This document shows, in pieces, positions 4,955 through 31,112 of a DNA stretch of 32,376 nucleotides. The position numbers were made by a program, and so were the translations under genes. The notes under the pieces were generated by a model that did not search any database, was not told where the DNA came from, and worked only from the letters and a program-made list of their open reading frames with translations. Source of the DNA: Anaerolineae bacterium (GTDB lineage Bacteria; Chloroflexota; Anaerolineae; Aggregatilineales; UBA3940); assembly GCA_016926985.1 (NCBI GenBank), contig JAFGNO010000131.1:1-32376 (forward strand), written 5' to 3'. Numbering within the stretch: the stretch's first letter is position 1; every line of letters begins with the position of its first letter.

Positions 4955-4957
4955 TGG

Positions 4958-5419: not shown

Positions 5420-8400
5420 AATTTCTCCCGTTTGTCTGCCAGATCAGACTCGCAGAGCGCAATAAGGTCAAACCTATCCATAAACCGCCCTTTGCCAAAC
5501 AATGCATCAATCTTGGCAATGACCTGAACATCACTGTAGTGCCTCAACTGTATTGCCTGGGCAGGGCACTCACTGGCGCACGTCCCACAACCCTGGCAGA
5601 CAGCAGGTTCAATATACGCGGCCCCCATGATGTTGCCTGTTCCAACCAGAGAAGATTTCACCCGGGGGACACCAAACGGGCACACACGCACACAGGTCAA
5701 GCAACCAGTGCAGCGCGTTTCATCCACAACAGCAATGCTGCCACCCGCGGTCATTGTCTCATAGACAAGCACCTTGGCGGCCTGTGAAGCAGCGGCCTGG
5801 GCCTGAACGATGGTTTCATCGAGCAGTTTGGGATAGTGAGCCATCCCGGCCATAAACAAGCCATCGGTCGAAAAGTCAATCGGCCTGAGCTTGACATGCA
5901 CCTCAAGAAAGAACCCGTCATTGTCGAGATTGGCCTTAAATAAACGGGCTATCTCACGGGATTCTGGCCGGGGAACAACGGGCATACTGAGCACCAGCAG
6001 GTCTGGCTCCAGCCTGACTGTCTGACTGAAAGCCGAATCCCAGGCTGAAACAACCAGGCCGTCGTCGCTCTGCACGTCCGGGGGGTGGTCATCATCATAA
6101 CGAACAAAAACCACTCCCAGTTCACGGGCCTGCGTATACAGCCGCTCTTTGAATCCATAGGCGCGAATATCTTTGTAGATAATGACCACCCGGGCATCGG
6201 ACTTGCGCTGCTTGAGCGCAATGGCGTTCTTGAGCGCAACCGTGCAGCAGATACGGGAACAGTACTGTTCGGCGGGGCCAACACACTGGATCATCACAAC
6301 GGAATCAGGAAGCTCGCCGCCATGCAGGACAGCCTCAAACTGCTGCTGGGTCACGATCCGCGGGTTGGTCCCATACCCGTATTCCGGCCCGCGATATTCG
6401 ATGCCGCCAATCGCCAGTATGGTCGCACCATGCTCCAAGACGGTCCGCTCACCGGTGTTGGTCTCAATGGTGGTGGAGAAATTCCCTCGGAAACCACTGG
6501 CATCCACCACCTGGCTGTTGAGATGAACCGTTACGGCTGGATTCTCCTCCACCTGGTCAACAAGGTGCCGCAGAAATGCGGCGGGGTCCTGACCGTCGGG
6601 CAGGGTATAGGTGTATCGCAGGTTGCCCCCCAGCGCCTCTTCCTTTTCGATCAGATTGACCGGGAATCCCTGCTCGGCAAGGGACAGCGCGGCTGTCATC
6701 CCGGCCACCCCGCCACCGACAACAAGCGCACGCTGCTGGACAGGAACAGTGATCGGCGTCTGCGGGAGCAACTCGGCAGCGCGTCCAACCGCCATCCGGA
6801 CCAGGTCTTTTGACTTGGCGGTTGCTTTATCCCAGTTATGTGAGTGAACCCACGAACACTGGTTGCGGATATTGGCCATCTCAAACAGGTAGGGGTTCAA
6901 ACTGGCGGTGCGCAGGCAGTCGCGGAACAGGGGCTCATGCGTCAGGGGTGTGCAGCTTGCCACCACCACACGGTTAAGGCCACGTTCCCGGATTTCCTCA
7001 GCAATATGGGCGATGCTATCCTGCGAACAGGTATAGAGATTGGATTCCGCGTGTGCCACGCCCGGAAGCGTGGCGGCGTATTCAGCCACCTCAGGCACAT
7101 CCAGATACCCCCCGATATTGGAGCCGCAATGACAGACAAATACGCCAATTCGCAGTTCTTCGCCTGAGACGTCGCGCTCTTCTGGATACTCCGTTTGTTT
7201 GGTCAGGGTAAATCGCGAGTTGCTTAACAGCCCGGCAGCAGCACCTGCCGCCCCGCTGGCCTCAATAACCGATTCGGAAATATCTTTAGGCTCCCGGAAG
7301 GGGCCAACTGCGTATATCCCTTTTCGGCTGGTTTCCAGCGGATCAAACAGGGTGGTATGGCAGAACCCATATTCATCCAGCTCGATTCCAAGCCTGTGAC
7401 CCAGCGCTTTCACCGACTCGGAAATCTCCATACCGACGGAAAGCACTACCAGGTCAAACTGCTCATCATGGGGCGCGCCCTGATCATCGACATAGTGGAT
7501 CAGCAGGTTTCGTGTGTCAGGATCTTCATGAAGCTGGCTGATCCGGCAGCGCGTATACTGCACGCCATAGCGGTTCCGAGCGCGCTCAAAATATCCCCAG
7601 TATCCCTTGGAAAAAGCCCGCATATCCATCATGAATACGTGGATATCCAGGTCCGGCTCGTGCTCTTTGGTGATGATAGCTTCCTTTGTGGCGTACATGC
7701 AGCACACGGCAGAGCAGTAATCGTGGGACTGGTCGCGGGAGCCCACACACTGGAGAAAAGCAATCTTCTGCGGCTTCTGCCCATCAGATGGGCGCTGGAT
7801 ATGCCCCATTGTTGGACCTGAGGCAGACAGAATCCGCTCGTATTGCAAAGCGGTGATCACATTGGGATACCGGCCAAAGCCGTACTCTTCAGACAATTCG
7901 GCACGATACACCTGGTAACCAGGAGCCAGGATAACCGCCCCCACCTGGATCATTTCTTCGGTCGCCGCCATATCATGGTTAATAGCATCCCGCCCGCAGG
8001 CAAAGGTACAGCTCATGCACTCAGAACACACACCACAGGCCAGGCAACGAGCGGCTTCCGCCATGGCGGATTCGTCGTCATAGCCGCCTTCCACCTCGGC
8101 AAAATTGCCTATCCGCTTGCTTACCGGAAGCTCAGGCAGGGGAACCCGCCTCTGCGGTGTAATCTCACCCCGGGCAATACGCTCATCAATCTCCTGCTGG
8201 GTCAGTTTAACCACCGGCAGCTCCGGCTTGGGCGGCGGCTCCAGATGATCCCCCTGCAAATAGCGGATAATCGACCGTGCAGCAGTATGTCCACTGTCAA
8301 CAGCTTCAATGACAAAAGCCGTCCCCGATACGCTGTCGCCCGCTGCAAAAACACCCTCGCGTGTTGCTGCCAGCGTGTTGGGATTGACGGCTATGGTCCT

Positions 8401-9969
8401 TTTGCCAGTCAGCCCGACGCCGGCATCATCGGGGATGAAGGCAAGACCGGCCCGTTGCCCAACCGAAAAGATCACCGTGTCGCACTCAATCAGGTGGGCC
8501 GAGCCCGGAATTTTCTCAACGATCAGCCGACCCATCTCATCAAAGTGAAACGACTCAACCCGATCGCAGCAGACGCCGGACACATGCCCGGACGCATCAC
8601 CGACAATCTCTTCAAATGTACGTCCGGCGTGAATGACGACCCCTTCTTCCTCCGCCGCTAACACCTCCCAGTCATGCGCAGGCATTTCTTCGCGGCTCTC
8701 CAGGCAGGCCAGGTGAACCTCTCTGCCCAGCCGGATGGCAGAGCGCGCCACATCAATCGCCACGTTGCCTCCGCCCAGCACCAGCACGCGCCTGCCAAGC
8801 GGTGGGGCGTCGCCGCTGCCATTTTCATAGCGTCCCAGCCGCACATCACGCAGGAAATGGGTGTTGATCAGCACACCCTCGCGGTTGGCGCCGGGTATGG
8901 GTAGCCGGATGCCTTCATGAGCACCGACAGCAATCAAGACAGCATCAAATCCCTCATCGAACAGGTCGTCGAGGTTATTCACCTGCGCGTTGAGTTTCAA
9001 GGTTACGCCGAGATCAACAATATCCTGAATTTCACGCTCGATGATGTATGTGGGGAGCCGGTATTCCGGCACCCCCAGCCGCAGCATTCCCCCGGCAACC
9101 GGCATCGCCTCAAACACGGTGACCGGATACCCTTCCATTGCCAGGTCCTGGGCGGCGGTCAGTCCGCAGGGGCCCGCGCCGATGATCGCCACTTGTTTTT
9201 CATGGGCAACAGGGACAGGCTCTACAGGCTGCCGTTCTTCTGCGTAGACCTTATCGGTAACAAATCGCTTGAGAGCGCGAATATTCACCGGCTCATCCAC
9301 CAACCCACGGTTGCAGGCTGTTTCACAGCGATGGTTGCAAATACGCCCGCAGATACCGGGGAACGGGTTATCCATCTTGATGACGCGCATCGCGTCATGC
9401 CAGCGCCCTTCACGGATCAACGCAATATAGCCCTGGGCACGCTGTCCAGCTGGACAGGCATCACGGCATGGCGCTATGCCCCGTTTTTCAATGGCAAAGG
9501 CGTTGGGTACAGCCTGTGGATAGAGCTGGTAAACCGCTCGATGTTCGGACAGCCCCTCATTGAAATGATCGGTTATAATAACCGGGCAGACCTCAGCGCA
9601 GTCACCGCATCCAACACATTTTTCCACATCGATATAACGCGGCGCCTGGTGAATGCGAACCGCGAAATCGCCCGCCTCCCCGGAAATGTCCTGCACCTCA
9701 GCCTGGGTGATAATTTTAATATTGGGATGGTTGCCTGTTTCTACCAGCTTGGGAGATATGGTACACATCGCACAGTCATTGGTCGGGAACGTCTTGTCAA
9801 GCTGGGCCATTTTCCCGCCAATTGCCGGCTGCGCCTCGATCAGGTAGACCATAAAGCCCTGATCAGCCAGGTCCAGCGAAGCCTGCATGCCGGCAATGCC
9901 GCCACCGACAACCATGACTGCGCCGGTTGGTCTGAGCTCCTGCTGCCCGGTATTTTCGTTTCCCCTCAT
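5416..9969 (-). CDS. hdrL: HdrL-type large flavoprotein: HdrA module interrupted by a GltD/SudA-like NAD(P)H-oxidoreductase module, then a second HdrA module and a C-terminal ferredoxin
   Basis: GGGIAG and LDKTFPTNDCAMC; insert with PCRDACP, CGRICNHRCETAC, GAGPCG, GGGNVAID, GVFAAGD, EAARCLAC; then QCVGSR..CSAVCC, GVFVCHCG, GGGVAG, CSRICC and two C-terminal CxxCxxCxxxCP motifs. Likely start is the ATG at 9969 (GAGGGG RBS) rather than 10014. Confidence 0.9.
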   Translation of the reverse strand: MRGNENTGQQELRPTGAVMVVGGGIAGMQASLDLADQGFMVYLIEAQPAIGGKMAQLDKTFPTNDCAMCTISPKLVETGNHPNIKIITQAEVQDISGEAGDFAVRIHQAPRYIDVEKCVGCGDCAEVCPVIITDHFNEGLSEHRAVYQLYPQAVPNAFAIEKRGIAPCRDACPAGQRAQGYIALIREGRWHDAMRVIKMDNPFPGICGRICNHRCETACNRGLVDEPVNIRALKRFVTDKVYAEERQPVEPVPVAHEKQVAIIGAGPCGLTAAQDLAMEGYPVTVFEAMPVAGGMLRLGVPEYRLPTYIIEREIQDIVDLGVTLKLNAQVNNLDDLFDEGFDAVLIAVGAHEGIRLPIPGANREGVLINTHFLRDVRLGRYENGSGDAPPLGRRVLVLGGGNVAIDVARSAIRLGREVHLACLESREEMPAHDWEVLAAEEEGVVIHAGRTFEEIVGDASGHVSGVCCDRVESFHFDEMGRLIVEKIPGSAHLIECDTVIFSVGQRAGLAFIPDDAGVGLTGKRTIAVNPNTLAATREGVFAAGDSVSGTAFVIEAVDSGHTAARSIIRYLQGDHLEPPPKPELPVVKLTQQEIDERIARGEITPQRRVPLPELPVSKRIGNFAEVEGGYDDESAMAEAARCLACGVCSECMSCTFACGRDAINHDMAATEEMIQVGAVILAPGYQVYRAELSEEYGFGRYPNVITALQYERILSASGPTMGHIQRPSDGQKPQKIAFLQCVGSRDQSHDYCSAVCCMYATKEAIITKEHEPDLDIHVFMMDMRAFSKGYWGYFERARNRYGVQYTRCRISQLHEDPDTRNLLIHYVDDQGAPHDEQFDLVVLSVGMEISESVKALGHRLGIELDEYGFCHTTLFDPLETSRKGIYAVGPFREPKDISESVIEASGAAGAAAGLLSNSRFTLTKQTEYPEERDVSGEELRIGVFVCHCGSNIGGYLDVPEVAEYAATLPGVAHAESNLYTCSQDSIAHIAEEIRERGLNRVVVASCTPLTHEPLFRDCLRTASLNPYLFEMANIRNQCSWVHSHNWDKATAKSKDLVRMAVGRAAELLPQTPITVPVQQRALVVGGGVAGMTAALSLAEQGFPVNLIEKEEALGGNLRYTYTLPDGQDPAAFLRHLVDQVEENPAVTVHLNSQVVDASGFRGNFSTTIETNTGERTVLEHGATILAIGGIEYRGPEYGYGTNPRIVTQQQFEAVLHGGELPDSVVMIQCVGPAEQYCSRICCTVALKNAIALKQRKSDARVVIIYKDIRAYGFKERLYTQARELGVVFVRYDDDHPPDVQSDDGLVVSAWDSAFSQTVRLEPDLLVLSMPVVPRPESREIARLFKANLDNDGFFLEVHVKLRPIDFSTDGLFMAGMAHYPKLLDETIVQAQAAASQAAKVLVYETMTAGGSIAVVDETRCTGCLTCVRVCPFGVPRVKSSLVGTGNIMGAAYIEPAVCQGCGTCASECPAQAIQLRHYSDVQVIAKIDALFGKGRFMDRFDLIALCESDLADKREKL

Positions 9970-10049
9970 GAACCCCCTCACGGATGCTGCCCGATCAAAC
10001 AAAGCAGCGTTCAACCAATGCGTGCCCTCGAAAAGCTCCCTCCTGAGGC

Positions 10050-10568
10050 TTATTCTGTGGCATGCGGCCTGCGCCCACGCCAGCCAACCTCCTCATCCGG
10101 CCCCTCAATTCGCCCGGTATCTGGTACGCCAACATCTGATTTCTGGGGTTTGATGGGGTTAGGGCCAAGTTTTCGGATACGCTCAGTCATCTCATGTGCT
10201 GCCATCGCAAAGGAATGGCCCTGGCTGCCTGACATGAAGAACATCTCAAGCCTGTCACCCCCAATGCCAATCTCGTCAAGAATCGCCTTTGCGCGATTCA
10301 GGCGAGCCAGCCCCCGTTCATTTCCCCTGACATGATGGCAGTTGCCAATCGGGCAGGCAACAACGTAAACGCCGTCAGCGCCCTGTTCAAACGCTTCAAG
10401 CAAATAGCGGACATCCGTTTTACCGGTGCAGGGCATCCGGATGAATTTGATATTTGCGGGGTATTGAATCTGCTGGATTCCGGCTGTATCTGCAGCCATG
10501 TATCCACAATAAATACAGTAAAACGCGGTAATTTCTGGCTCGAAATTGCTGGATTGCTGGGAGTTCAT
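10050..10568 (-). CDS. mvhD: MvhD/FlpD-family [2Fe-2S] subunit, Cys-type, with a C-terminal extension
   Basis: FYCIYCGYMAAD, RMPCTGK, GADGV..ACPIGNCHH, LGPNP; ATGA overlap with the upstream hdrA. Confidence 0.92.
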   Translation of the reverse strand: MNSQQSSNFEPEITAFYCIYCGYMAADTAGIQQIQYPANIKFIRMPCTGKTDVRYLLEAFEQGADGVYVVACPIGNCHHVRGNERGLARLNRAKAILDEIGIGGDRLEMFFMSGSQGHSFAMAAHEMTERIRKLGPNPIKPQKSDVGVPDTGRIEGPDEEVGWRGRRPHATE

Positions 10569-13500
10569 TTAGCCACCTCAGCGCTGATATGGGTCTGCCA
10601 GCTTCCTAACCCACCAATGGAATGAAGCATCATCTGTTCGTCAGTGTAATGCACCAACTGGATTGCATTGGCCGGACATTCGCCAGCGCAGGTCCCACAG
10701 CCCTGGCACTGCGCAGTGTCAATATACGCCGGGCTGCCCAATCCCCCCACCCCAGTCATGTCATCGCGTGGGACAATCTGCGGGATGGCAAACGGGCAGG
10801 TCCGGGTGCAGGTCAGACACCCGACACATTTCTCCGGATCCACAACCGCGACAATGCCTCCCAGATGCAGCGCCTGCTGGGACAGCAAAGGTAAAGCCCT
10901 TGCGGCAGCAGCCAGCGCATGACTGATGCTCTCCTCAATAAACTTTGGATAATGCGCCATACCAGCAAGGAATATACCCTCGCGCATGAAGTCCATGGGA
11001 CGCAGCTTCATCTGGGCTTCTGTGAAAAACCCCTCAGTAGACAGCGGAACCCTCAGTATCTCAGCCAACGCATTGGCCCCTTTGGCGGGCCCAATTGCCA
11101 TACTGATCGGGACCAGATCAGCAGGCAGGTCCAGCCAGCGTTTAATCGTCATATCATAGACGCGGACATGCAGACGGTTGCCATGCCTCACCAGCAAGGG
11201 CGGTTGGCTGTCCTCATAGCGAACAAACAACACACCTAGCTTCCGTGCAGCTTCGTAAAACTCCTCCCGGAACCCATAGGTTACGATATTTTTATAAACT
11301 ATTGTGAGTTGACAATCCGGGTTGAATAATTTGAGGCGAATGGCGTTTTTCATCGTATTGGTACAACAAACCCGCGAACAATATTCCGGGCTGCCGGGAG
11401 GACGAACACACTGTATCATGACAACTTCGCGCAAGGAAGCAATCTGGCCCGGTTCGTGGATAATCATCTCCTCAAGACGCTGCTGTGTGATCACTTCGGG
11501 ATAGACCTCAGCGTTGGTGAGCCACGGATGTTCCTGCGTTTCCCTGCCCCCTGTTGCCACAATCGTCACACCATGCTCGATCTCGGTGTTCGTAAATGAA
11601 CCATCCAGATGACGAGTGTGCAGAACCGCCTGGAAAAATCCCACATGGCCCCGGTGATCGATCACCTCAGTCCGGGTATGGGCCACGATCCGCTGGTGGG
11701 ATCGAACCCGGTTGACCAGGTCCCTCAGCAGACGCTGCGGCTGGTAGCCCTCTGCCACATAATACAGGTTCAAAAGGTTGCCGCCGAGCATATCCTCTCG
11801 CTCGACCAGGTGGACATCGCACCCACTGTCAGCAATGGCCAGCGCCGCCGACATCCCTGATACTCCCCCCCCAATAACCAGAGCCGTTGGGTGACAACTA
11901 TGCATATCTTTGTGAACCGGTTGCGCCAGCACAACACGTCCGGTAGCTGTACGCATGAGTTCAATTGCCTTCTGTGTCACTCTGCCCGGTTGCGCCCTAT
12001 GCACATTGGCACACTGCTCACGAATGTTAACCAGTTCGATAAGGTAGGGATTCAGCCCGACTTCCCGTATGGTGCGCTGGAATAATGGATCATGCGTCCG
12101 GTTGCTGCATGCTCCAATCACCACGCGGTTCAAGTTATACTCGTTGATTTTTTGTTTGATATGATCTGTCCCCGCCATAAAACAGGCATAGTCAATCACT
12201 TCTGATACGACTACATTCGGCCAGTGCGCAGCCTGCCTGAGCACCTCAGGGAGGTCGATTACCTCACTGATCACCTCACCGCATGAACAGGCAAAAATCC
12301 CCACTCTCGGAGACTGGGCGGTAATATCCCTCTCCGGTGGCAGCGTTTCATTGGCAAGGAAGGGCCATTCCCGTGTGAACTGGAAAGTGTTCAACCGGTC
12401 ATTGAGCAGCCGCATGACTTCTGCGGCTGCGCCGCTGGCATCGATGATCGTTTCAGAAATCTCCTTGGGAGAAGAAAAGGCGCCGCAGACAAAAACCCCT
12501 GGACGCGAGGTTTGCAAGGGCGTGAACTTATCTGTCTGGCAAAAGCCATACTCATTCAACTCGATATCCAGCATCTCAGCCAGTTCCCCGGCCGAGTCGG
12601 GTGGTTGAAGCCCGGTTGCCAGCACAACCATCTCATATCGTTCGTGAATTAGTTCACCCCGCTCATTGGCATACTGAAGAATCAAATCACCCGTAAGTGG
12701 ATCCTCCTGAACAGCCGATACCCTGCACCGGACATAGTTGATATGGTGGGTTTCTCGGGCCTGCTCAAAATACTTGCTGTATTCCTTGTTAAACGCGCGT
12801 TCATCCATAATGAAGACGGTACAGACAGCATCTTCACCCATCCGCTGTTTGGCCAGAATAGCCTCTTTGGTGGCGTACATACAGCAGATGGATGAACAGT
12901 ATTTATTTTCCCTGTCCCTGGAGCCAATACATTGCAGCCAGGCAATTGACCGGGGTTTCCGTTGGTCAGATAGACGACTTATCACGCCTTCGGTCGGGCC
13001 GGACCGGCTGGCAAGTCGCTCATAGGTCATGGCATGCAAGACATTTCGGAAACGTCCATAGCCCAGTTCATCCAGGCTGGAGGGGTCATAAGTCTGAAAG
13101 CCCAGCGCCAGGATAATGGCGCCCACATTGATGCCGATCAGTCTTGGTTGTTCGCTCAGGTTGATGGCCCCTGTCGGGCAGATTTCCTGACATTTGCCAC
13201 AGTCGTCACAATAATCACCTTTATCAATCGCATACGAATCCGGTGCAGCTCGCCCGGCTAATTTGAAGGCTGCCTTTCGTGTCGCCAGGTTATCCTGGTA
13301 GGAATCGGGGAGTTCAACCGGGCAGACACGAGCACAGTCTCCACAGTTGGTGCATAACTCAGGGTCGACATAGCGAGGATTCTGGCGCACTGAAACGCTG
13401 AAGTCCCCTGCCTGTCCTTCCACACCAACTATCCGTGAGTTGGTCAATATCTCGATATTGGGATGTCGGTTGTGATCGATATATGCCGGAGACAAAGAGG

Positions 13501-13738
13501 GGCGGGTGCATCCAAACCCATGATCTGCAGTTCCACGACAAAGCACACAGTCATGCTGGGGAAACATATATCCCAGTTGAGCCACCCGCCCACCCAGACA
13601 GGGCGTTTGTTCAACAAGATATACCTGCAATCCGGCATCGGCCAGGTCAAGAGCGGCTCGCATACCGCCGATGCCACCACCGACAACAAGTGCTGCTGCT
13701 GGCTGCCCTTTTGCAGTGCGGGAGCGAAGTGGTTCCAT
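10565..13738 (-). CDS. hdrA: Tandem (double-module) HdrA-like flavoprotein
   Basis: Two GGGxxG FAD motifs (GGGIGG, GGGVSG), two QC..CS..CC cluster motifs, internal and C-terminal ferredoxin motifs. Likely start is the ATG at 13738 (GAGGA RBS). Confidence 0.9.
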   Translation of the reverse strand: MEPLRSRTAKGQPAAALVVGGGIGGMRAALDLADAGLQVYLVEQTPCLGGRVAQLGYMFPQHDCVLCRGTADHGFGCTRPSLSPAYIDHNRHPNIEILTNSRIVGVEGQAGDFSVSVRQNPRYVDPELCTNCGDCARVCPVELPDSYQDNLATRKAAFKLAGRAAPDSYAIDKGDYCDDCGKCQEICPTGAINLSEQPRLIGINVGAIILALGFQTYDPSSLDELGYGRFRNVLHAMTYERLASRSGPTEGVISRLSDQRKPRSIAWLQCIGSRDRENKYCSSICCMYATKEAILAKQRMGEDAVCTVFIMDERAFNKEYSKYFEQARETHHINYVRCRVSAVQEDPLTGDLILQYANERGELIHERYEMVVLATGLQPPDSAGELAEMLDIELNEYGFCQTDKFTPLQTSRPGVFVCGAFSSPKEISETIIDASGAAAEVMRLLNDRLNTFQFTREWPFLANETLPPERDITAQSPRVGIFACSCGEVISEVIDLPEVLRQAAHWPNVVVSEVIDYACFMAGTDHIKQKINEYNLNRVVIGACSNRTHDPLFQRTIREVGLNPYLIELVNIREQCANVHRAQPGRVTQKAIELMRTATGRVVLAQPVHKDMHSCHPTALVIGGGVSGMSAALAIADSGCDVHLVEREDMLGGNLLNLYYVAEGYQPQRLLRDLVNRVRSHQRIVAHTRTEVIDHRGHVGFFQAVLHTRHLDGSFTNTEIEHGVTIVATGGRETQEHPWLTNAEVYPEVITQQRLEEMIIHEPGQIASLREVVMIQCVRPPGSPEYCSRVCCTNTMKNAIRLKLFNPDCQLTIVYKNIVTYGFREEFYEAARKLGVLFVRYEDSQPPLLVRHGNRLHVRVYDMTIKRWLDLPADLVPISMAIGPAKGANALAEILRVPLSTEGFFTEAQMKLRPMDFMREGIFLAGMAHYPKFIEESISHALAAAARALPLLSQQALHLGGIVAVVDPEKCVGCLTCTRTCPFAIPQIVPRDDMTGVGGLGSPAYIDTAQCQGCGTCAGECPANAIQLVHYTDEQMMLHSIGGLGSWQTHISAEVAK

Positions 13739-13907
13739 AGAGCATTCCTCGACGTTGAAAACCACGTACAACTAACGGAAATACACCATTAACAAATGGA
13801 CGTGTGAATAGGACTATGAAGTCTGAGTGGTAGGCGGGAGAAGGTGAACGTGGAGTAGTTAGCGTGATTGTGTGTGAGAGTTCTGTTTTATGCAGCTATT
13901 TAAATGC

Positions 13908-14115: not shown

Positions 14116-15357
14116 TTAGTGCTCCGCTGGTACACTGTCAGCCGCAGGATAGATAGGCAGATAGCGCACTCCCAGTGTCAGGCCCAGCAACGCATAAGCA
14201 ATGATTCCCAGAAACGCGCCAATTTCAATCAGCGTAGGCGTATAGGACAATCGGGGGAAAAGAAAGGCCGTTCCAGGAGACCAATCGAGCGGCACAACCA
14301 GGCCGGAGATAGTTGTATTCCAGCGGAGCATAACAACGCCAACAATGGTCAAGGCAGCGGCCAGCATAAGCATCCAATCATTCTCACGCAGACGTCGCCA
14401 CATATAAATGATAGCAGGCAGAATTCCCCCGATCAGAACCTCAACCCACCAGAAAGTCGCCCCATAGGGAGATGTCTGGTATAGAAGCTCCAGGCCCGCC
14501 TCGGTAGCAGGAAGACTGCTGTAGTAGTTAGTGGCTGCCCAGTTCCACACCTTTAAATAGAGATAAAAGAGCAAGGCTGCGCCAGCAATCAGCGCCAGAT
14601 CGCGTAAAACGCCCGGCTTAACCACATATTTTCCCCGCAAGAGGCTGACAACCAGGGTAACCAGCAAGGTCGCCGACAGGCCGCCAGCCACAGCCGACAG
14701 GATAAATTGGACCGGCAGCGAGGGGTTATACCAGAGCGGTCGGGCAGCAATAATACCATACGTTGCACCAAGAGAAGATTGGTGCAGGAGTGATAGGACA
14801 AGACCAATCAGCGCAAATATCGGCGTGAAGCGATGAAGCTGGTGGGCCGCTTTCGGTGCAGCCGCCCAGCGCGCCTTGACAACGTCGCTCTCCAAAACAA
14901 CAACCGCGATCTCAAGCGCCAGCACTGTGAAGTAAAACACCACGCACATCGTGATTTCCCACAACACCGAGTGGACATTCCAGTAAACCAGTGGATGCCA
15001 GAACCGATCCGGGCGGCCAATGTCCAGGGCAAGGGCCAGCATCGCAGAGGAGTATCCCAGAAACCCACCAAGCACAGCGATCCGGGCAACCCCCTCAAAC
15101 CGCTTGATGTTCAGCAGGTAAACAACCGCCGATAGAACAAACGCGCCTGCTCCCAGACTGATTGCTGAGAGGTCCAGGGCAATCCACAATCCCCACGGTA
15201 TCTGGTGTGACAGCCCGGTAACACCCAACCCTTTAGCAAATACCACCACTCCACACACAACGCCAATCACCAGCAGAATCCCCAGGAGGCCAATCCAAAT
15301 TTTCAGGCCCAGAGGCATGTCAAGCCATGGTAGCTTTTTCATAACGGCGCCTGTCAT
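14116..15357 (-). CDS. NrfD/PsrC-family (HmcC/HybB-like, ~10 TM) quinone-interacting membrane subunit
   Basis: PWGLWIA, LALDIGRPDRFWH, SVLWEI, LSLLHQSSLG, RPLWY motifs; many hydrophobic helices. Confidence 0.9.
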   Translation of the reverse strand: MTGAVMKKLPWLDMPLGLKIWIGLLGILLVIGVVCGVVVFAKGLGVTGLSHQIPWGLWIALDLSAISLGAGAFVLSAVVYLLNIKRFEGVARIAVLGGFLGYSSAMLALALDIGRPDRFWHPLVYWNVHSVLWEITMCVVFYFTVLALEIAVVVLESDVVKARWAAAPKAAHQLHRFTPIFALIGLVLSLLHQSSLGATYGIIAARPLWYNPSLPVQFILSAVAGGLSATLLVTLVVSLLRGKYVVKPGVLRDLALIAGAALLFYLYLKVWNWAATNYYSSLPATEAGLELLYQTSPYGATFWWVEVLIGGILPAIIYMWRRLRENDWMLMLAAALTIVGVVMLRWNTTISGLVVPLDWSPGTAFLFPRLSYTPTLIEIGAFLGIIAYALLGLTLGVRYLPIYPAADSVPAEH

Positions 15358-16145
15358 GAGATCACCATCCCTTCAGCCGGGATATAGTAGACGTTAGGCT
15401 CCGTGCCCAGGTCTTCTTTCAGCTTAAAAGTAGGCGTACTGGCAATGAGTTTCGCCACTTCTGATTCCGGGTCATTCAGATCGCCAAACAGCCGGGCCTG
15501 AACCGGGCAGATATTGACACAGGCAGGTGTTGCAGAACGATCAACACCGGGCATCAATCCCTGTTCCAACCCGCGATCGATCCGGTGCACACAGAAAGTA
15601 CACTTTTCAACCACCCCACGCGGGCGGCGCTCGATTTCAGCAACGCCATATTCTGGCTGATAGGGATTTACATCGCTCCGGGGGGAGTAGTTGAAACGCC
15701 GCGCATCATAAGGGCAGGCCACCATGCAATACCGGCAGCCAATACAGCGGTCATAATCCATCACCACCACGCCATCCCCTCGCTGATAGGTGGCATGCAC
15801 CGGGCATACGTCAGCGCATGGCGGGTCCTGGCAGTGCAGGCAGGGACGAGTCATGTGGAAAATCTGACCCGTGACCGTCCGGTCCGGCGTGTAGACATTC
15901 CACAGCATATCTTCAGCAGTATCGTTTACTGCCCGGCATGCATAAACACAATACTGGCATCCAATACACTTACTCAGGTCGATCACCATCACCCAGCGGT
16001 GATTTCCTTCTGCCGTTTCTTCAGCATTGACCCGGTGAGCAATCCCCGGTGAGGCCAGCGCCGCGGCAACTGCTGTGGAGAAACCAGCAATGCCAAGCGC
16101 TTCCAGGAACTTCCGCCTGCTAACAGGCTTTACGTTTTCTGTCAT
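15354..16145 (-). CDS. NrfC/DsrO-like 4x[4Fe-4S] protein with a Tat signal
   Basis: SRRKFL twin-arginine motif; CIGCQYCVYAC, CLHCQDPPCADVCP, CIGCRYCMVACP, CTFC..CVNICP. Likely start is the ATG at 16145 (GAGGAG RBS). Confidence 0.9.
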   Translation of the reverse strand: MTENVKPVSRRKFLEALGIAGFSTAVAAALASPGIAHRVNAEETAEGNHRWVMVIDLSKCIGCQYCVYACRAVNDTAEDMLWNVYTPDRTVTGQIFHMTRPCLHCQDPPCADVCPVHATYQRGDGVVVMDYDRCIGCRYCMVACPYDARRFNYSPRSDVNPYQPEYGVAEIERRPRGVVEKCTFCVHRIDRGLEQGLMPGVDRSATPACVNICPVQARLFGDLNDPESEVAKLIASTPTFKLKEDLGTEPNVYYIPAEGMVIS

Positions 16146-16146: not shown

Positions 16147-18573
16147 CTACTCTGTCTCCTCATCGACCCGTTCATCGTCCCACTTACCAAACCTGGCAGT
16201 AATGAAGGAGCGATTCCGGCAAATGAAGACCCCTATTCCGCCAACAACCAGACCAATCGCCGCGCCTTTTATAATATTCAGAATAGTTCTGTTGCGGTCT
16301 TCATGCATAAGGGTCTCGACCTCTGCCTGAAGCTCACTGATCAGAAGCTCTTCTTCTGTTCCCAGCAGAATAGACTCTTCGGTATCCGTTCGGGAGAATC
16401 CATCATCCACATTGCTGGGAACCAGTTCAATATCCTGATGGCAATCCAGGCAACTGGTCACATTGACCCGGAAGTCGTGTCCGGTGGGTTTCTGCCCATC
16501 CGGGCGCTGTGTATAAGAGTCGGGATTCACATAGCCATGGCAGTCGCGGCAGACCAGGCCCGCCTCCACATGCGACTGGTGAGCAAAATCATCAAGCTGG
16601 TGGCTGTGGCAATTCAGGCACTGCGTGACCTGGTCTTCGAAGCGCAGGCCATTTGTATGGGCATAGTGGCAGCTTGTACAGGTCATACCTGCAACCTCAT
16701 GCAAACTGGCGCGGAACTCGGCTTCTGACACTGTGTGACAGTCTGCACAGGCGGTGATCGCATCATTCAGTCCGGCAGCCACAGCAGGATGGCCCTCAGG
16801 GACCTGTCCATGGCAGGCTTCACAGGCAACGCCTTCGGCATGGTAGCTTTCCAGCGCAGGGCTGTAACCAGTGGTATGGCAGTCCAGACAGTCAGGATCG
16901 TAATTGCGCTCTCCCCAGGATTCCTGGAACCCATTATTAGAATAGGCATGGGCATGAGGCGTTTCGACCCAGTCGTTGACTATAGCACTGTGGCACTCAA
17001 CACAGGTAGATGGAATCTGATCAATTGGATTGGAGGGCGCAGCAGATGGAGGCTCACCGGTCGGTTCTTCAGTCAGTTCTGGCTCCGGCTCCGCTGGAAC
17101 AGGCGGGAAGGTCGACAATACCTGGACCTCTTCAGAAGAGTAGCCAAGCGCGATAAAATCGAGCCGCCCGTTCTCAGTGTGGCAATCCATGCAGCCAAGG
17201 GCTTCCTCGGCAGGGGCCACCTGGTGGGTAATCGGCCAGTACATAACGCTTTCGATCTGCTCATACGAACCGCTGTATTCGACATCGCGCTGGGCCAGCC
17301 CTTCCTGCAAAGCCAGGTCCATATCCCATACTTTCCAGAAAGCTGTTGTATCATCCGCGTTGTAGGGAAACAGGTGAGGGATGCCAATGACGTTGTTCAC
17401 CGGGTCGTAGGGTTGGATACCGGTGAACACCTTGAAGGGCCATATCTTGCCATCTTCCCGGCTCCCAAGAATGGCATTTACTGTGAAATTGGTATCAGGG
17501 TCAACGCCCTCCTCAAACAGCGCATAGTCATATACGCCATTTGACCAGAAATACTCGGGCTGCACATCCATTTCCCAGGTGAATGACCCCTTGCGCGAGT
17601 CATAAACATGGACCTCAAAACCGTTGACCTCCTCGCTGACAATCCAGGGATATCCCCCTTCAGGATTGGGCTGTCCTGCTTGTGACCAGTCCCAGGTCAT
17701 CATTGACGGCGCACCGCGAGCAAACTCCGGAATATGGCAGGTCTGGCAGGCGATAAACCCTGCATGGGTATTCAAAGCAGCAACATCTGCATGTGGCTCT
17801 GCTGTGTGGCAGTTCTCACAGGTAGCCCCTTCGCCCGTATAAGCATCTGCCACATAGCGCCCACCGGAGATATTGTGGTTTTCGGTGATGTGGCAATCGG
17901 TGCAGGAGAAATCAAGTCCATCGGAACTCATGTGAACATCTTCCTCCCAGGCAGGATCAAGCAGAGACGTGTCCAGGTCGCCGTGTTTCACACCATCTCC
18001 CCCGCCGCCTGTGAAGTGACAGGAACCACAGGTCTGGCGGCTGGTTGCCCCGACATTTTGCGCCACATAAGCCAGGTCTACCGGCGGCCATTCCACGCCG
18101 CTCAGGATTATTGGCTCTCCCAGCACCGGGTTACCGGCTGCTGTGGGGAACTTGGCATAAGTGCCAGTTGTATCATGGCAGACCAGGCAGTCTATCAACT
18201 CCGGGTTCTCGAAATCGAACGTGTCATCACGCCAGCCATAGCCAATATGGCAGCTCGTGCAACGCGGTTCATTTGAGTCTATTGCAATGCAGTAGTTGTT
18301 GATGACATACCGTTTACCCACGGTCTCGCCAATCACCTCATTCTCATATTCCCAGGTCCAGTGGACAGTGCTCATAATATCGCTGGCGACATTGGCATGG
18401 CAGGTCAGACAGGCCGCAGTCACCTCAGGGCCAGATTCAAATGGCCCTTCTAACAACGTAAAAGTTGAGTGATCCATCCCCTGCTGGGCAACAGCCTCAT
18501 CTTGCGTAAGCAAAATCAGGCCCAGCGCAGCGCTCAGTGAAATCACTATTGCGACAACATGCGTACGTTTCAT
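16147..18573 (-). CDS. 16-heme cytochrome c: octaheme tetrathionate reductase (OTR)-family domain, Pro/Glu linker, second 8-heme domain, C-terminal TM anchor
   Basis: 16 CxxCH motifs counted (8+8); OTR signatures HWTW, GK..INNYC, CTSCHIGYGW, GGGDGVKHGD, WDWSQAG, PITHQVAP; N-terminal Sec signal. Confidence 0.88.
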   Translation of the reverse strand: MKRTHVVAIVISLSAALGLILLTQDEAVAQQGMDHSTFTLLEGPFESGPEVTAACLTCHANVASDIMSTVHWTWEYENEVIGETVGKRYVINNYCIAIDSNEPRCTSCHIGYGWRDDTFDFENPELIDCLVCHDTTGTYAKFPTAAGNPVLGEPIILSGVEWPPVDLAYVAQNVGATSRQTCGSCHFTGGGGDGVKHGDLDTSLLDPAWEEDVHMSSDGLDFSCTDCHITENHNISGGRYVADAYTGEGATCENCHTAEPHADVAALNTHAGFIACQTCHIPEFARGAPSMMTWDWSQAGQPNPEGGYPWIVSEEVNGFEVHVYDSRKGSFTWEMDVQPEYFWSNGVYDYALFEEGVDPDTNFTVNAILGSREDGKIWPFKVFTGIQPYDPVNNVIGIPHLFPYNADDTTAFWKVWDMDLALQEGLAQRDVEYSGSYEQIESVMYWPITHQVAPAEEALGCMDCHTENGRLDFIALGYSSEEVQVLSTFPPVPAEPEPELTEEPTGEPPSAAPSNPIDQIPSTCVECHSAIVNDWVETPHAHAYSNNGFQESWGERNYDPDCLDCHTTGYSPALESYHAEGVACEACHGQVPEGHPAVAAGLNDAITACADCHTVSEAEFRASLHEVAGMTCTSCHYAHTNGLRFEDQVTQCLNCHSHQLDDFAHQSHVEAGLVCRDCHGYVNPDSYTQRPDGQKPTGHDFRVNVTSCLDCHQDIELVPSNVDDGFSRTDTEESILLGTEEELLISELQAEVETLMHEDRNRTILNIIKGAAIGLVVGGIGVFICRNRSFITARFGKWDDERVDEETE

Positions 18574-18750: not shown

Positions 18751-18764
18751 ATGACATTTGTCAT
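18751..18764. promoter_or_regulatory. Palindromic candidate operator in the divergent cytochrome/rpoB intergenic region
   Basis: ATGACA-TT-TGTCAT perfect inverted repeat, next to a minus-strand TACAAT -10-like hexamer. Confidence 0.45.
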
Positions 18765-19020: not shown

Positions 19021-22950
<3,930 letters not shown>

Positions 22951-26615: not shown

Positions 26616-27512
26616 TTACGAACCTGTTCGGCGGCGGGTTCGCCGTTCCCGGCGGCGGCCATCGTGTTCTTCGCCGCTGCGGTTTGCAGCCAGCCAACTG
26701 GCACAGTTCTCGTCACGCCCCATCATCACATCTGCTGCAAGGATGGTCATTCTGATATCCTCTTCAAGCGGGTTGGCAATCGCGCAGGGCATCCCTAATG
26801 CAATTGCCATCGCCAGAAAGGTGGCGTTCAGCCGGATGCGCCCGGGCAGGCCAAATGACACATTGCTGGCCCCGCAAACAGTGTTCACGCCCAGTTCATC
26901 CCGGCAGCGACCGACCAGTTTAAAAACCGCTCTACCGGCCATAGGGACGGCACCAACAGGCATAACGAGCGGATCGACCAGCACATTTTCGCGGGAAATA
27001 CCGTGATCTTCAGCCCGTCGCACGATTTTCCTGGCGATCTCAAACCGCATATCAGGGTCCTCTGAAATGCCGGTTTCGTCGTTGCAGATTGCGATGACAG
27101 CAGCGCCGTATTTTTTTATCAGCGGCAAAACTGCCTCCAGCCGTTCTTCTTCCCCCGTAACCGAGTTGACAAGCGCTTTCCCTTCATAGGCCTCCAGACC
27201 AGACTGCAAAGCAGCGATGATTGAGGAGTCGATTGAAAGTGGGACATCAGTCACCGCCTGCACCCGCCTGACAGCTTCAGCAAGAATGGCAGGCTCATCG
27301 GCAAGAGGAATGCCTGCGTTGACATCCAGCATCTGCGCCCCGGCGCTGACCTGAGCTGCCGCATCCGACTCCACCCGGCTGTAGTCTCCCGCCGCCATCT
27401 CAGCGGCCAGCATCTTCCGCCCGGTTGGGTTAATCCGTTCCCCAATGATGACAAAAGGATGGTCTGGGCCAATCACAACAATTTTAGTCTTCGAGCTCAA
27501 AGTTGTCTTCAT
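26616..27512 (-). CDS. Pterin-binding methyltetrahydrofolate:corrinoid methyltransferase (MeTr/AcsE-like; stand-alone MetH folate domain)
   Basis: IIGERINPTGRK, LDVNAG, PLSIDSS, LVNSVTGE, LVDPLV, GASNVSFGLPGR. Confidence 0.9.
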   Translation of the reverse strand: MKTTLSSKTKIVVIGPDHPFVIIGERINPTGRKMLAAEMAAGDYSRVESDAAAQVSAGAQMLDVNAGIPLADEPAILAEAVRRVQAVTDVPLSIDSSIIAALQSGLEAYEGKALVNSVTGEEERLEAVLPLIKKYGAAVIAICNDETGISEDPDMRFEIARKIVRRAEDHGISRENVLVDPLVMPVGAVPMAGRAVFKLVGRCRDELGVNTVCGASNVSFGLPGRIRLNATFLAMAIALGMPCAIANPLEEDIRMTILAADVMMGRDENCASWLAANRSGEEHDGRRRERRTRRRTGS

Positions 27513-27515
27513 AAC

Positions 27516-28124
27516 CTAGTCTCCAATGCGGCTCTTATCGCTGCATTTCATCAAATTGACAAGTCGCGTCTCTAGTGTGCCGTATCCGGTATCCCACACC
27601 TCAAAATCAAGCTCCAACTGCGCTGCCGCCCTGGATGCTTTTGCCAACAGGCTGGGATCATCAGTCTGCTTCAGGTAAACGACCCGTCTGTAATTTGCAA
27701 AGTAAGTATCCCTGAGCTCCGGGGCCCGGTCCAATCCGAGTCCTTCAATAACAAGGTGATCGAATGAGCGAACCAGGAAGTCTGTGAGAAAAAACGTGCC
27801 CGGCTCATCGACCATGGCCGCCTCAAACGCGTCTTTGCCAAGATACTGCTCATAACAGTGCGGGCCGCTGATCCGCTCAACAGACAGGGAATCCAACATA
27901 TCATCCAGGGCGCCGGCTGTACCGCAGTCGCCATAAATAACAATCGTATGCTCATACCGATCGGCGGTATCCACAATACGCTTCCTGACAGCCTCCGGTA
28001 TGCGGGAGGGATCGTTATGCAAAAGCGCGGGGACTGCCAGCACTTCTGCATCCCAGCCATATCGATTCCGTATGGCGATCACCTCGCGGGCAAGTGCCCC
28101 ACAGGTAAGCAGCAGAACTGTCAC
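27516..28124 (-). CDS. DUF1638-family protein (associated with corrinoid enzymes)
   Basis: CGALARE, LHNDP, YGDCGT, GPHCYE, FFLTDFL motifs; operon context. Confidence 0.82.
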   Translation of the reverse strand: MTVLLLTCGALAREVIAIRNRYGWDAEVLAVPALLHNDPSRIPEAVRKRIVDTADRYEHTIVIYGDCGTAGALDDMLDSLSVERISGPHCYEQYLGKDAFEAAMVDEPGTFFLTDFLVRSFDHLVIEGLGLDRAPELRDTYFANYRRVVYLKQTDDPSLLAKASRAAAQLELDFEVWDTGYGTLETRLVNLMKCSDKSRIGD

Positions 28125-28136
28125 CGAACTGGCATC

Positions 28137-29024
28137 CTATTTAAGCGCCTCTGCAATAGCGCGGATATGATCAGGGGTGCTCCCGCAGCAAGCGCCAATG
28201 ATGGTTGCACCCAGGTTCCGCACCCGCACCGCATAGCGCCCCATATCTGAGGGGGCTGCATCATACACTGGCACGCCAGCTTCCAGGTGGGGCACACCTG
28301 CATTTGCCTTGGCGATCAGGACAGCGTTCTTGCCAAGTGCATGCATTTTGCTGACCACAGTCTCAATTTCCTCAATACCGTTCCCGCAGTTGCCACCCAG
28401 CGCCACGACATCGAACCCTATGAGGACTTCAAAGGCTCTCTCAGGTGTCACCCCAAACATTGTCCGCCCATTTGTATCAAAGGTCATGGTTGTGACCAGG
28501 GGCAGTTGGGGTGCTGCACGCCGGGCGCCCTCTACCGCAGCACGCACCTCCTCAAGATCGGACATCGTCTCAATCCAAAGGATATCAACGCCGCCTTCTG
28601 CCAGTGCGCCCGCCTGCTCCGCAAATGCAGAGACCGCATCGTCAAACTCCATGTCTCCATATGGCTTCAAAAGACTGCCGGTTGGGCCCATATCCCCCGC
28701 CACAATCACCGGTTGAGGAGCCTCATCAGCTTCGGTCCTGGCCAGGCTGGCCGCCGCCTGATTAAACTCAATGGCTCTATCAGACAACTTGTGCAGCTTG
28801 AGACGATATCTGTTACATCCAAACGTGTTGGTCAGGATAATCTGTGCGCCGGCTTCAATATAAGCCCGGTGAACATTGCGTATCCTGTCTGGATGCTCAA
28901 CATTCCACAATTCCGGCGAGTCTCCCTGAGTCAGGCCCAGCTCAAACAGGATGGTGCCCATCGCGCCATCGGCAATCACCGGTTTGCCGGAAGATATAAG
29001 GTCCTGGAATGTGGTTTTCATCAA
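28137..29024 (-). CDS. Stand-alone homocysteine S-methyltransferase (MetH Hcy domain / Bmt-like)
   Basis: ADGAMGT, TNTFG, GDMGPTG, IETMSD, Zn ligands GNC and GACCGS. Confidence 0.92.
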   Translation of the reverse strand: MMKTTFQDLISSGKPVIADGAMGTILFELGLTQGDSPELWNVEHPDRIRNVHRAYIEAGAQIILTNTFGCNRYRLKLHKLSDRAIEFNQAAASLARTEADEAPQPVIVAGDMGPTGSLLKPYGDMEFDDAVSAFAEQAGALAEGGVDILWIETMSDLEEVRAAVEGARRAAPQLPLVTTMTFDTNGRTMFGVTPERAFEVLIGFDVVALGGNCGNGIEEIETVVSKMHALGKNAVLIAKANAGVPHLEAGVPVYDAAPSDMGRYAVRVRNLGATIIGACCGSTPDHIRAIAEALK

Positions 29025-29081
29025 TTACCTTTCATAAGCAATCAGCGTTTGCAATGAATGGGAGGATTTTACCATACTCCC

Positions 29082-31112
29082 CTACCCTGTTCTACGCGAC
29101 CGCGATGATCTGTCTTTTCGCCTGTCACCAGGACTATTTCGAGGCGGCAGAATCCCCGCAAGATGAGGAAATTTGTCTTCAGCATGTGGCAGGGCCATGG
29201 CAGCAACAAAGAATTCCTGGAAATGTGGAGCAATGGCGGTCTCAACATATTCAACACTGCGAGCTGCCTCCTGCGCTTCCTTCCGGCTCTCAGCGTTGAG
29301 AAGCGCGATCCGCGCCCCATCCCCGGCAGAATTGCCAACTGCTGTTACGTTTATGAGATCGCAATCTGGTATCAGCCCAATGACCATGGCATAGGTTGGA
29401 TCAATATAACTGCCAAAAGCGCCCGCCAGTTTGATCCGGTCGACCCTGTCTGTCCCAAACCTTTCCATAAGCAGCCGAATCCCTGCATAGAGCGCACCTT
29501 TTGCAAGCTGTATCTGACGTATATCATTTTGAGTAACGACGATATCATGACCGGTGGATGTTTGCTCGCTGTCAGCAATCACTACCTCATAGGTGCGACC
29601 ATTCGGCTGCAGCCTGACCGCAGGGTGCAGACTTTCAGCATCCTTTACAAATCGACCGCTACGATCAATTAGCCTATGAATGAATAACTCCCCCACCACT
29701 TCGATAATGCCCGATCCACAAATCCCGGTTGGCTTGAGCGACTGGTCCGCATCGATCTCGCCGCTCCAGCGCTGATCTCCCACGACCTTATAGTGCATCT
29801 GGCCTTGACCAGTATCGATCCGAAACCGCTCAATTGCCCCCGGTGTGGCTCGCTGACCGTGGGTAATCTGCGCGCCTTCAAAGGCCGGCCCTGTCGGGCT
29901 TGAGGCTGACAGCATCCGCGTGCGGTTCCCAAGCAGAATCTCAGCATTTGTGCCGATATCTACAACAAGTGTGATCTGGTCATCAAGCTGGGGCTGTTCA
30001 GCCAGAAGTACTGCTGCATTATCTGCTCCAACATGCCCAGCAATGCATGGCAAAATGTGCGCATACGCGCCTTTGCTGACAGAGGTCAAACCCAGATCAC
30101 GGGCTTTGATATCAACCGGATCGCTGACTGCCAGCGCAAATGGCGCCCCACCCAATTCAACGGGGTCAATACCCAGCAAGATATGATGCATGACGGTGTT
30201 ACCAACCAGCACAACATCGACAATATCATCCTGATGTAAATCGACACTTGCTGCGGCTTCAACCGCCAGGTCGTTTACTGCCTTCAACACAGCCCGGTGC
30301 ATCCGGGCAAGTCCCTCTGGCTCAGTGATACCATACGACACGCGGCTCATCAGGTCCTCACCATATCGGACCTGCGGGTTCATCATTGACCGGGTAGCCA
30401 GTACCTGGCCTGTCAGCAGATCAACCAGATGCCCGGCAAGAGTTGTCGATCCAACGTCAACGGCAAACCCGGCCATCCTTTCAACATACCCCGGCTCAAT
30501 ACGGATTACCTCAGCATTGTTCCAGAGCGTCAGGGTTATTGCCCAATTGCCCTGGCGCAAAGCCGATTGGAGTCGTGGAAACAATACCGGATCGAGTTGA
30601 ATATCGCTGGCATGCCATTGATTGGAAACGGCGCGTTGCACTCGCTCCCAATCAGCAGTGCCTTCTAAAATCGCCGGTTCAACGGTGATATACATAAGCC
30701 TGACAGCGGGATTGACCGCTATTTGCAGGTCGCTGGCCTCTTTGCGAATAACCTGCTTGCGTGCGAGGCTGCTTTCCGGCACAAAAATAAGCGCGTCACC
30801 CTTGAGCCTGGCAGAACATGATAGGCGATATTTGCTGAGGTCAAGCCCGTGTTCTTCTGCATAGGCTTGTTCCTCCGCTTCTGGTGGGGTGAGGTGCGAG
30901 TTTTTTGACTCGATACCGTGCTTTTGAAAAATACCAGTCTCGTGAGCGATCAGACACTTTCCGCAGGTCTGCCGCCCACCACAGATTGACTCGATGCCCA
31001 CTCCAAGCTGCCGGGCGGCATCAAGCACAGTCTGTCCACATTCAACCTTACCCTGCCTTCCTGAAGGCATAAGGATCAGCCTACACAGGATAGTGCTATC
31101 TTGATGGCTCAT
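29082..31112 (-). CDS. ATP-dependent reductive activator of corrinoid proteins (RACo/RamA-type ASKHA ATPase with an N-terminal [2Fe-2S] domain)
   Basis: ICGGRQTCGKC..RLSC; DVGSTT, NPQVRYGEDLMSR, GNTVMHH, DIGTNAE, GPAFEG, GICGSG, AGAFG. Likely start is the ATG at 31112. Confidence 0.92.
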   Translation of the reverse strand: MSHQDSTILCRLILMPSGRQGKVECGQTVLDAARQLGVGIESICGGRQTCGKCLIAHETGIFQKHGIESKNSHLTPPEAEEQAYAEEHGLDLSKYRLSCSARLKGDALIFVPESSLARKQVIRKEASDLQIAVNPAVRLMYITVEPAILEGTADWERVQRAVSNQWHASDIQLDPVLFPRLQSALRQGNWAITLTLWNNAEVIRIEPGYVERMAGFAVDVGSTTLAGHLVDLLTGQVLATRSMMNPQVRYGEDLMSRVSYGITEPEGLARMHRAVLKAVNDLAVEAAASVDLHQDDIVDVVLVGNTVMHHILLGIDPVELGGAPFALAVSDPVDIKARDLGLTSVSKGAYAHILPCIAGHVGADNAAVLLAEQPQLDDQITLVVDIGTNAEILLGNRTRMLSASSPTGPAFEGAQITHGQRATPGAIERFRIDTGQGQMHYKVVGDQRWSGEIDADQSLKPTGICGSGIIEVVGELFIHRLIDRSGRFVKDAESLHPAVRLQPNGRTYEVVIADSEQTSTGHDIVVTQNDIRQIQLAKGALYAGIRLLMERFGTDRVDRIKLAGAFGSYIDPTYAMVIGLIPDCDLINVTAVGNSAGDGARIALLNAESRKEAQEAARSVEYVETAIAPHFQEFFVAAMALPHAEDKFPHLAGILPPRNSPGDRRKDRSSRSRRTG

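Follow-up and report, generated by a model that had tools for sequence, protein, structure and literature searches.

A sixteen-heme fusion of OTR to a second octaheme domain likely heads an NrfC-NrfD operon in an Anaerolineae genome

Why would an OTR, which has eight hemes of its own, carry a second set of eight? The question is raised by a gene in a 32,376-nucleotide stretch of DNA from an Anaerolineae bacterium (contig JAFGNO010000131.1; hereafter the window), which encodes, in one frame of 808 amino acids (aa), an intact OTR domain, a second domain with eight heme motifs and a predicted membrane anchor. The structure of OTR is solved, but a physiological role for it has never been established, and tetrathionate respiration was ruled out as its role in Shewanella ANA-3 by a 2026 mutant study (PMC12949373; papers are cited here for those passages of them that were accessible). 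The fusion gene is real, intact and, as far as searched, uncharacterised, a one-lineage graft within the cytochrome-NrfC-NrfD kind; with the two genes behind it, it likely specifies a membrane complex in which quinol would supply electrons to the OTR active site, most likely for the reduction of nitrite or hydroxylamine to ammonium, a reading that we hold at about an even chance. The gene and its parts are as follows.

16147..18573, minus strand: 16-heme fusion gene, 808 aa, a single open frame
18487..18573, minus strand: predicted Sec-type signal peptide, aa 1-29 (hydrophobic aa 4-22), cleavage site judged by eye
17107..18474, minus strand: OTR domain, aa 34-489, hemes 1-8, with K87, C95, D193 and K196 (TIGR04315, 1SP3 alignment, fold match, conserved residues)
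17032..17106, minus strand: acidic Pro-rich linker, the fusion junction, aa 490-514, resembling the stalk of anchored stand-alone OTRs (tails of P0043-P0045)
16414..17031, minus strand: second octaheme domain, aa 515-720, hemes 9-16 (motifs; nests among stand-alone octahemes)
16276..16392, minus strand: predicted helical stalk, aa 728-766 (AlphaFold2 helix aa 728-794)
16219..16275, minus strand: predicted C-terminal membrane anchor, aa 767-785, then a short charged tail (hydropathy)

The 16 CxxCH motifs fall into two sets, eight at aa 55-465 and eight at aa 524-712; in 20,000 shuffles of the protein the mean was 0.06 motifs and the maximum 2, and two Cys lie beyond the 16 regular motifs. The layout described in an earlier, sequence-only reading of this DNA (two sets of eight motifs, a linker, a stalk and a C-terminal anchor) is present on the one 808-aa frame. 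The first half is OTR by every sequence test: the family profile TIGR04315 matches aa 34-478 with 564 bits vs. a cut-off of 375, which settles the domain search that the earlier reading had proposed, and Shewanella OTR (PDB 1SP3) is matched with an E of 1e-125. An AlphaFold2 model built from 107 aligned rows (pLDDT 83, with one long helix at aa 728-794), used instead of a discarded single-sequence model (pLDDT 35), superposes on 1SP3 with a target-normalised TM of 0.88, a Z of 41.7 and an rmsd of 2.3 over 421 aligned residues. By alignment, K87, C95, D193 and K196 correspond to 1SP3 chain positions 56, 64, 150 and 153, and the active-site Lys and Cys reported from the sequence alone are indeed retained. 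K87, the predicted ligand of catalytic heme 2, is retained in 53/53 rows from fifteen-heme OTR fusions (see below) and 30/30 rows from eight-heme OTRs in alignment A2, and C95 together with K196 in 52/53 fifteen-heme rows; we take D150 and K153 of 1SP3 to have active-site roles. A conserved Lys ligand of heme 2 with a nearby Cys is a described feature of OTR (bioRxiv 2023.04.20.537704; PMC12285233).

For the second octaheme domain, hereafter the wire, structure prediction gave less: fold searches with the model matched the OTR half only, the wide search was swamped by the stalk helix, and the wire itself, with no clear fold match, showed a weak resemblance to DmsE/MtrA (MtrA, E 0.03). The linker is modelled with low confidence (pLDDT <50 at aa 502-510). 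Seven non-motif His of the wire, its predicted distal ligands, are invariant in 20/20 stand-alone homologues and would suffice for seven bis-His hemes.

The sequence-only reading had named two genes joined by an assembly error as one finding that would overturn it. In public sequencing run X1 a 1688-bp contig spans 15733-17420 of the window with 4 differences and 0 gaps, has no joint or loose end at the linker, reaches from OTR heme 8 across the linker into the next gene, has a depth of 8.3 vs. 7.6 and 8.5 for its neighbours, and carries its own alleles. Because this contig bridges the junction, an assembly join at the linker is unlikely. Three long X1 contigs show 13 fixed differences from the window, which suggests another strain; X1 may nevertheless be the source sample of the window. 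Short pieces of each half, nearly identical to the window, occur in run X2 from a second study, none of them across the junction, and the RNA runs X3 and X4 contain just short distant pieces, giving no RNA support for the fusion. The public run that matches best comes from a sediment metagenome. Neither half has a second copy in the assembly, and the GC content at third codon positions (0.61 and 0.55 for the two halves) gives no useful separation between them.

Where would the additional hemes lead? Two genes follow directly on the same strand.

15354..16145, minus strand: NrfC/DsrO/QrcC-like iron-sulfur subunit with a twin-arginine motif and 16 Cys (four predicted 4Fe-4S clusters)
14116..15357, minus strand: NrfD-family membrane subunit with 10 predicted helices (PF03916, 115 bits)

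The likely nrfC start, ATG 16145, lies 1 nt past the fusion stop (the longest open reading frame starts at 16190), and the nrfD start overlaps the nrfC stop. The fusion gene likely heads an operon with these two genes, with which it would be co-transcribed, and this is what would give the wire a destination. The NrfC-like protein scores 223.7 bits vs. a cut-off of 200 with NF045797 (DsrO). Among NCBIfam models the NrfD-like protein comes closest to QrcD, with 270 bits, and to HmcC, with 179 bits, neither of which reaches its cut-off, and no PDB sequence match was found; its D112, S130 and R345, the last a candidate for the mid-membrane Arg of NrfD-like modules, are invariant or nearly so in 27 aligned rows (one E at 112), and the 18-residue spacing of D112 and S130 equals, as a correspondence by spacing only, that of the quinone-site Asp and Ser in QrcD and NhcC (PMC8076601). 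A PF03916 membrane subunit next to a four-cluster iron-sulfur subunit, the arrangement that characterises NrfD-like quinone modules, is present here.

Both halves have unfused relatives in the same family. Sixty relatives were searched with both halves, and the loci of the 20 best wire matches were compared; no match spanning both halves is listed among the 60. Nearest to the first half are stand-alone OTRs with their own acidic stalk and anchor (60-68% identity), and the second half matches 326-366-aa octahemes with signal and anchor (31-57% identity). The stand-alone octaheme is followed directly by NrfC and NrfD in 19/20 loci, the lone octaheme without NrfCD within 5 kb downstream being L060, and no OTR lies in the retrieved flanks of the 20. 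Genomes G001 and G007 encode both parents, unfused and on separate contigs. In the trees, unfused anchored OTRs surround the OTR half (support 100/96, 100/98), octahemes of the same family that are not fused surround the second half (98/82, 100/91), and the NrfD is nested among NrfDs of unfused octaheme operons. Because each half is nested among unfused relatives, the simplest history suggested by the trees is a recent graft, in which an octaheme gene heading an older octaheme-NrfC-NrfD operon exchanged its signal peptide for the 5' part of an anchored otr; judged by its sequence, the linker is the stalk inherited from the anchored OTR parent. Grafting of heme modules is an established theme (PMC9250108), and this locus would show it at a recent stage, with both parents still unfused in the same family. 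No second 8+8 OTR fusion was found among the 60 relatives or 150 listed representatives, in 400 genomes of the class (E 1e-60, only two candidates scored per genome), among 7999 scored candidates of 444-1414 aa, or in seven metagenome loci, of which L148 encodes a stand-alone OTR.

One feature upstream of the gene may bear on this history.

18751..18764, no strand assigned: perfect 6-2-6 palindrome, candidate regulator site, 191 nt upstream of the fusion start, sole exact copy in the assembly

The palindrome was picked after the fact, and 0.09 exact copies are expected in the assembly. Looser copies lie upstream of 2/7 anchored or near OTR loci; two 2-mismatch copies stand ahead of L148, the nearest stand-alone OTR, and a 1-mismatch copy ahead of L023, with none at <=1 mismatch ahead of the 20 octaheme operons. 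These copies of a post hoc motif weakly suggest that the promoter came with the OTR parent.

Among loci with the unfused state, one (L089:139-1819 and 5953-7665) has an octaheme-NrfC operon divergent from an anchored OTR ~4 kb off, and another (G001:C10) has ccmC- and ccmF-like matches just upstream of its stand-alone octaheme-NrfCD operon. In G007 the OTR is spread over two frames (L003:740-2539), and an in-frame stop interrupts the NrfC of G022 (L051:6091-6903), in each case a broken gene or an assembly error. A second common OTR clade of the class (L007-L009, L011-L018, L020, L027-L047; ~480 aa, without anchor) is found immediately ahead of a long gene that has 4-6 or more heme motifs, and P0183 and P0189 look like that OTR and multiheme-gene pair fused with cytochrome b561.

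Is the wiring of OTR to an NrfC-NrfD pair confined to this one gene? Among 119 top matches, 86 have 15 motifs, 28 have 8, two have 14, two have 16 (tandem OTRs) and one has 10. A family of 15-heme OTR fusions accounts for 85/119; one further 15-motif protein (L086/P0080) was dropped from the count as an OTR joined to a second OTR-like domain. A C-terminal hydrophobic segment is present in 82/86 of the fifteen-motif proteins. Like the 16-heme fusion, the family, from Anaerolineales and Ardenticatenaceae, has OTR, a homologous wire and an anchor, followed by NrfC and NrfD in 6/6 loci that include downstream DNA (five of them carry the label Anaerolineales, Ardenticatenaceae or Anaerolinea, one only Chloroflexota). 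Unlike the 16-heme fusion, it has seven wire hemes, corresponding to hemes 10-16 of the latter, no long linker (hemes 8 and 9 lie 46-51 aa apart vs. 63 aa), and separate clades for all three components. Approximately unbiased (AU) tests reject a clade of the 16-heme fusion with the family for OTR (p 0.0014), wire (p 0.016) and NrfD (p 0.0004); the OTR test, which includes two unfused OTRs nested in the 15-heme clade, is approximate, its quick tree search having missed a better tree. Taken together, the trees and tests show separate origins for the two fusions. The two nested unfused OTRs would be losses. The family is patchy, because it was not found in 400 genomes of the phylum at E 1e-150, and because the wire-domain protein search missed it that search has a limited reach. 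A 5'-truncated protein, P0212 (35% identity), has a divergent OTR-like domain, a Pro/Glu linker, an eight-heme wire and an anchor, and groups apart from the 16-heme fusion. A scan of 8 proteins showed further OTRs joined to NrfD, cytochrome b561 or NapC domains, and some OTRs precede HmcB/HybB-like genes.

Neither the operon nor the independently derived 15-heme family was part of the sequence-only reading, whose remark that it did not recognise the fusion as a characterised protein holds: searches of open-access literature, most subscription papers being outside that scope, turned up no description of an OTR fused to a heme wire ahead of NrfCD. The ~85 protein clusters of the family are labelled simply OTR in databases. 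We propose, tentatively and as a possibility that falls short of the main reading, that OTR-wire-NrfCD is an undescribed class of respiratory complex in Anaerolineae, assembled from the same parts on at least two or three occasions, that would let sediment Chloroflexota respire nitrite or a sulfur oxyanion unseen by nrfA/dsr marker surveys, and whose quinol module would reveal the physiological reaction of OTR. What makes the locus valuable is that OTR has been wired to a quinol module repeatedly, and that a testable unit results: three genes encode enzyme, wire and quinol module, so the role of OTR can be tested from quinol to product.

Several proteins stand beside these fusions. Two loci within the 15-heme clade (L073:5977-9726 and L074:5022-7979) have anchored stand-alone OTRs followed by HmcB/HybA- and HybB-like genes, the wire apparently lost and the module swapped. 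In P0181, a 15-heme protein, the C95 and K196 equivalents are replaced, possibly making it a non-catalytic conduit form. P0002-P0017 are 16-17-heme proteins of 690-820 aa without OTR that end in the same eight-heme wire and anchor; they form one clade (100/100), and some are labelled Chloroflexi/Anaerolineae. P0041, P0042, L082, L136, L086, P0160 and P0241 are tandem OTR-OTR or OTR plus OTR-like proteins with 16-24 hemes, P0160 also with a NapC-like domain.

How does the unit compare with known systems? Shewanella oneidensis OTR (1SP3) has in common with it the fold, the eight motifs and the catalytic Lys and Cys, but is a soluble single domain fed by STC/CymA, whereas the fusion has eight more hemes, a stalk, an anchor and an NrfC-NrfD operon. 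E. coli NrfABCD has the same functional order of catalytic cytochrome, multiheme shuttle, 4Fe-4S subunit and NrfD quinol site (PMC12285233). Unlike in NrfABCD, the catalytic domain here is OTR and not NrfA (PF02335 is not among the Pfam matches), the shuttle has 8 hemes and is anchored and covalently fused, NrfD has 10 helices, and the scores are 143 vs. a cut-off of 378 for TIGR03149 (NrfC) and 37 vs. 348 for TIGR03148 (NrfD). MccACD/SirACD likewise combine an octaheme catalytic cytochrome with 4Fe-4S and NrfD-like subunits; in contrast to the present unit, MccA is a copper-heme enzyme and not OTR, MccD has 8 helices, and there is no fused wire. HmcABC, NhcABCD and QrcABCD of Desulfovibrio are similar in joining a multiheme cytochrome, an Fe-S protein and a 10-helix NrfD-like subunit, and HmcA has 16 hemes as the fusion does; yet the HmcA model NF045713 has no match in the fusion at E 0.001, the HmcB and HmcC models score below cut-off, there is no QrcB-like gene, and QrcC and QrcD reach 171 vs. 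400 and 270 vs. 570. The Hmc, Nhc and Qrc cytochromes are non-catalytic. By analogy, the unit would work like NrfABCD or MccACD yet belongs to neither, nor to Hmc or Qrc.

According to the reading that we favour, quinol would be oxidised at the NrfD-like subunit, and electrons would pass to the 4Fe-4S clusters of the NrfC-like subunit, then along hemes 16 to 9 of the anchored wire, then into the OTR heme chain, probably entering near heme 8, which adjoins the linker, and finally to the Lys87-ligated heme 2. The covalent linker would replace the weak diffusive donor of Shewanella OTR, STC, which binds OTR with a Kd of 1.6 mM, a positive patch lying near heme VIII (PMC4484225); OTR heme 8 is the heme preceding the linker in the fusion. 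In NrfABCD, NrfB shuttles electrons from NrfCD to NrfA (PMC12285233). Nitrite or hydroxylamine is favoured as substrate because reduction of these two prevails in OTRs in vitro, and because otr is dispensable for tetrathionate respiration in ANA-3 (PMC12949373); tetrathionate, which the sequence-only reading had listed among the substrates of Shewanella OTR and for which in vitro activity is very low in the same account, is doubtful. It also counts in favour of this reading that no NrfA was found in the 80% complete assembly.

The earlier reading had also explained the fusion as a tethered enzyme with its own heme wire, suited to a cell without a classical periplasm. The first part stands, given the fusion and its predicted anchor. 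Chloroflexota are monoderm, which one preprint passage supports indirectly. Among the top matches, 20/28 eight-heme OTRs have a C-terminal hydrophobic segment, and OTRs of diderms (e.g. Marinobacter, Azoarcus) have two hydrophobic segments. Because anchoring is common in OTRs, diderms included, the argument from a missing periplasm is unsupported; a link to a quinol module explains the fusion better than does the lack of a periplasm, though tethering may matter more in such cells.

Several observations weigh against quinol-driven reduction of nitrite or hydroxylamine by this unit. The 8+8 fusion with this OTR is known from one genome only. Only seven conserved distal His are found for eight wire hemes, and model confidence is low at aa 540-581, the contact between OTR and wire lying outside the model. 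The substrate is taken from other OTRs, whose physiological function was never established, and sulfite, from the mutant study (PMC12949373), and tetrathionate, from a sediment study (PMC8528874), stand as alternatives. The direction of flow is tentative, because among NrfD models QrcD and HmcC come closest and because Qrc reduces quinone. In the assembly (2.3 Mb, 80% complete), no cytochrome c maturation genes (PF01578, PF03100) and no UbiA-family, MqnA or menA genes were found, and none of three molybdopterin matches is Nap or Nar over cut-off, leaving a nitrite source without support. Because the assembly is 80% complete, encodes six further proteins that have at least six heme motifs each, and belongs to a family in which 21/23 genomes have CcmC/F, the absent maturation genes are likely missing sequence. 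The same explanation is less sure for quinone synthesis, menA being over cut-off in only 13/23 family genomes.

If wiring and direction are as proposed, the acceptor could instead be a sulfur oxyanion, either sulfite, as in MccACD/SirACD, or tetrathionate, an alternative that we regard as unlikely though deserving of weight. In ANA-3, deletion of otr raised sulfite accumulation, and the authors proposed sulfite reduction (PMC12949373); in sediment Acidobacteriota, otr transcripts were 36-fold up with tetrathionate (PMC8528874); in MccACD an octaheme sulfite reductase works together with an NrfD-like subunit; and the best-matching run comes from sediment. Set against this are the dispensability and very low in vitro activity already noted for tetrathionate, the lack in OTR of the copper of MccA (PMC12949373), and a fold-search match of MccA to the model at only E 2.7.

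Improbable in our judgement is reverse flow, in which OTR would oxidise an external donor (thiosulfate, hydroxylamine) or take electrons from cytochromes and NrfD would reduce menaquinone as Qrc does. Qrc transfers electrons from cytochrome c3 to quinone (PMC8076601), and the best membrane-subunit models are those of QrcD and HmcC, albeit below cut-off; both hydrogenases in the assembly look cytoplasmic, so that a donor to the quinone pool is not obvious. The operon, however, has no QrcB-like subunit, thiosulfate oxidase activity of OTR is reported as very low (PMC12949373), and the heme potentials of OTR cover roughly the low range seen in MmcA (bioRxiv 2023.04.20.537704).

We give similarly little credence to the sixteen hemes being mainly an outward conduit or electron store (for metals, humics or partners) with incidental OTR catalysis. 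The parent operon, octaheme plus NrfCD, has no catalytic subunit, the same wire caps the 16-17-heme proteins without OTR, the wire weakly resembles DmsE/MtrA, P0181 lost its C95 and K196 equivalents, and MmcA, a relative of OTR, is a conduit. MmcA, however, lost the Lys-ligated heme (bioRxiv 2023.04.20.537704), whereas the fusion keeps heme 2, K87, C95, D193 and K196, and nearly all fifteen-heme rows keep C95 and K196. Finally, we consider it highly improbable that an assembly chimera, or a non-functional read-through arising by chance, accounts for the fusion: it is known from one genome only, X1 may be the source sample, X2 lacks a bridge and RNA support is absent, but the X1 contig crosses the junction without a gap, at the depth of its neighbours and with its own alleles, neither half has a second copy, the frame is open with the conserved residues of both parents kept, and the same layout arose in P0212 and the 15-heme family.

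Around the operon, the downstream Hdr cluster was considered as part of the unit and rejected, having its own promoter-like site and no HdrA counterpart in the 20 flanks. It lies at 1816-13771 and comprises two large HdrA, two MvhD, MetV/MetF and a fused HdrBC; the site, at 13937-13908, matches 11/12 positions, promoter-like-site scans being near chance overall. On the other side, rpoB (19021-22950) is divergent from the fusion gene and has no adjacent rpoC in the window, and 26616-31127 holds split methionine-synthase-like and corrinoid activation genes (pterin-binding, DUF1638, homocysteine methyltransferase, RACo/AcsV-like). Elsewhere in the assembly, a DmsABC-like operon lies among three multiheme genes (L155:7281-11320), and a 10-heme gene faces an NrfH-like 7-heme gene (L158:5770-9804).

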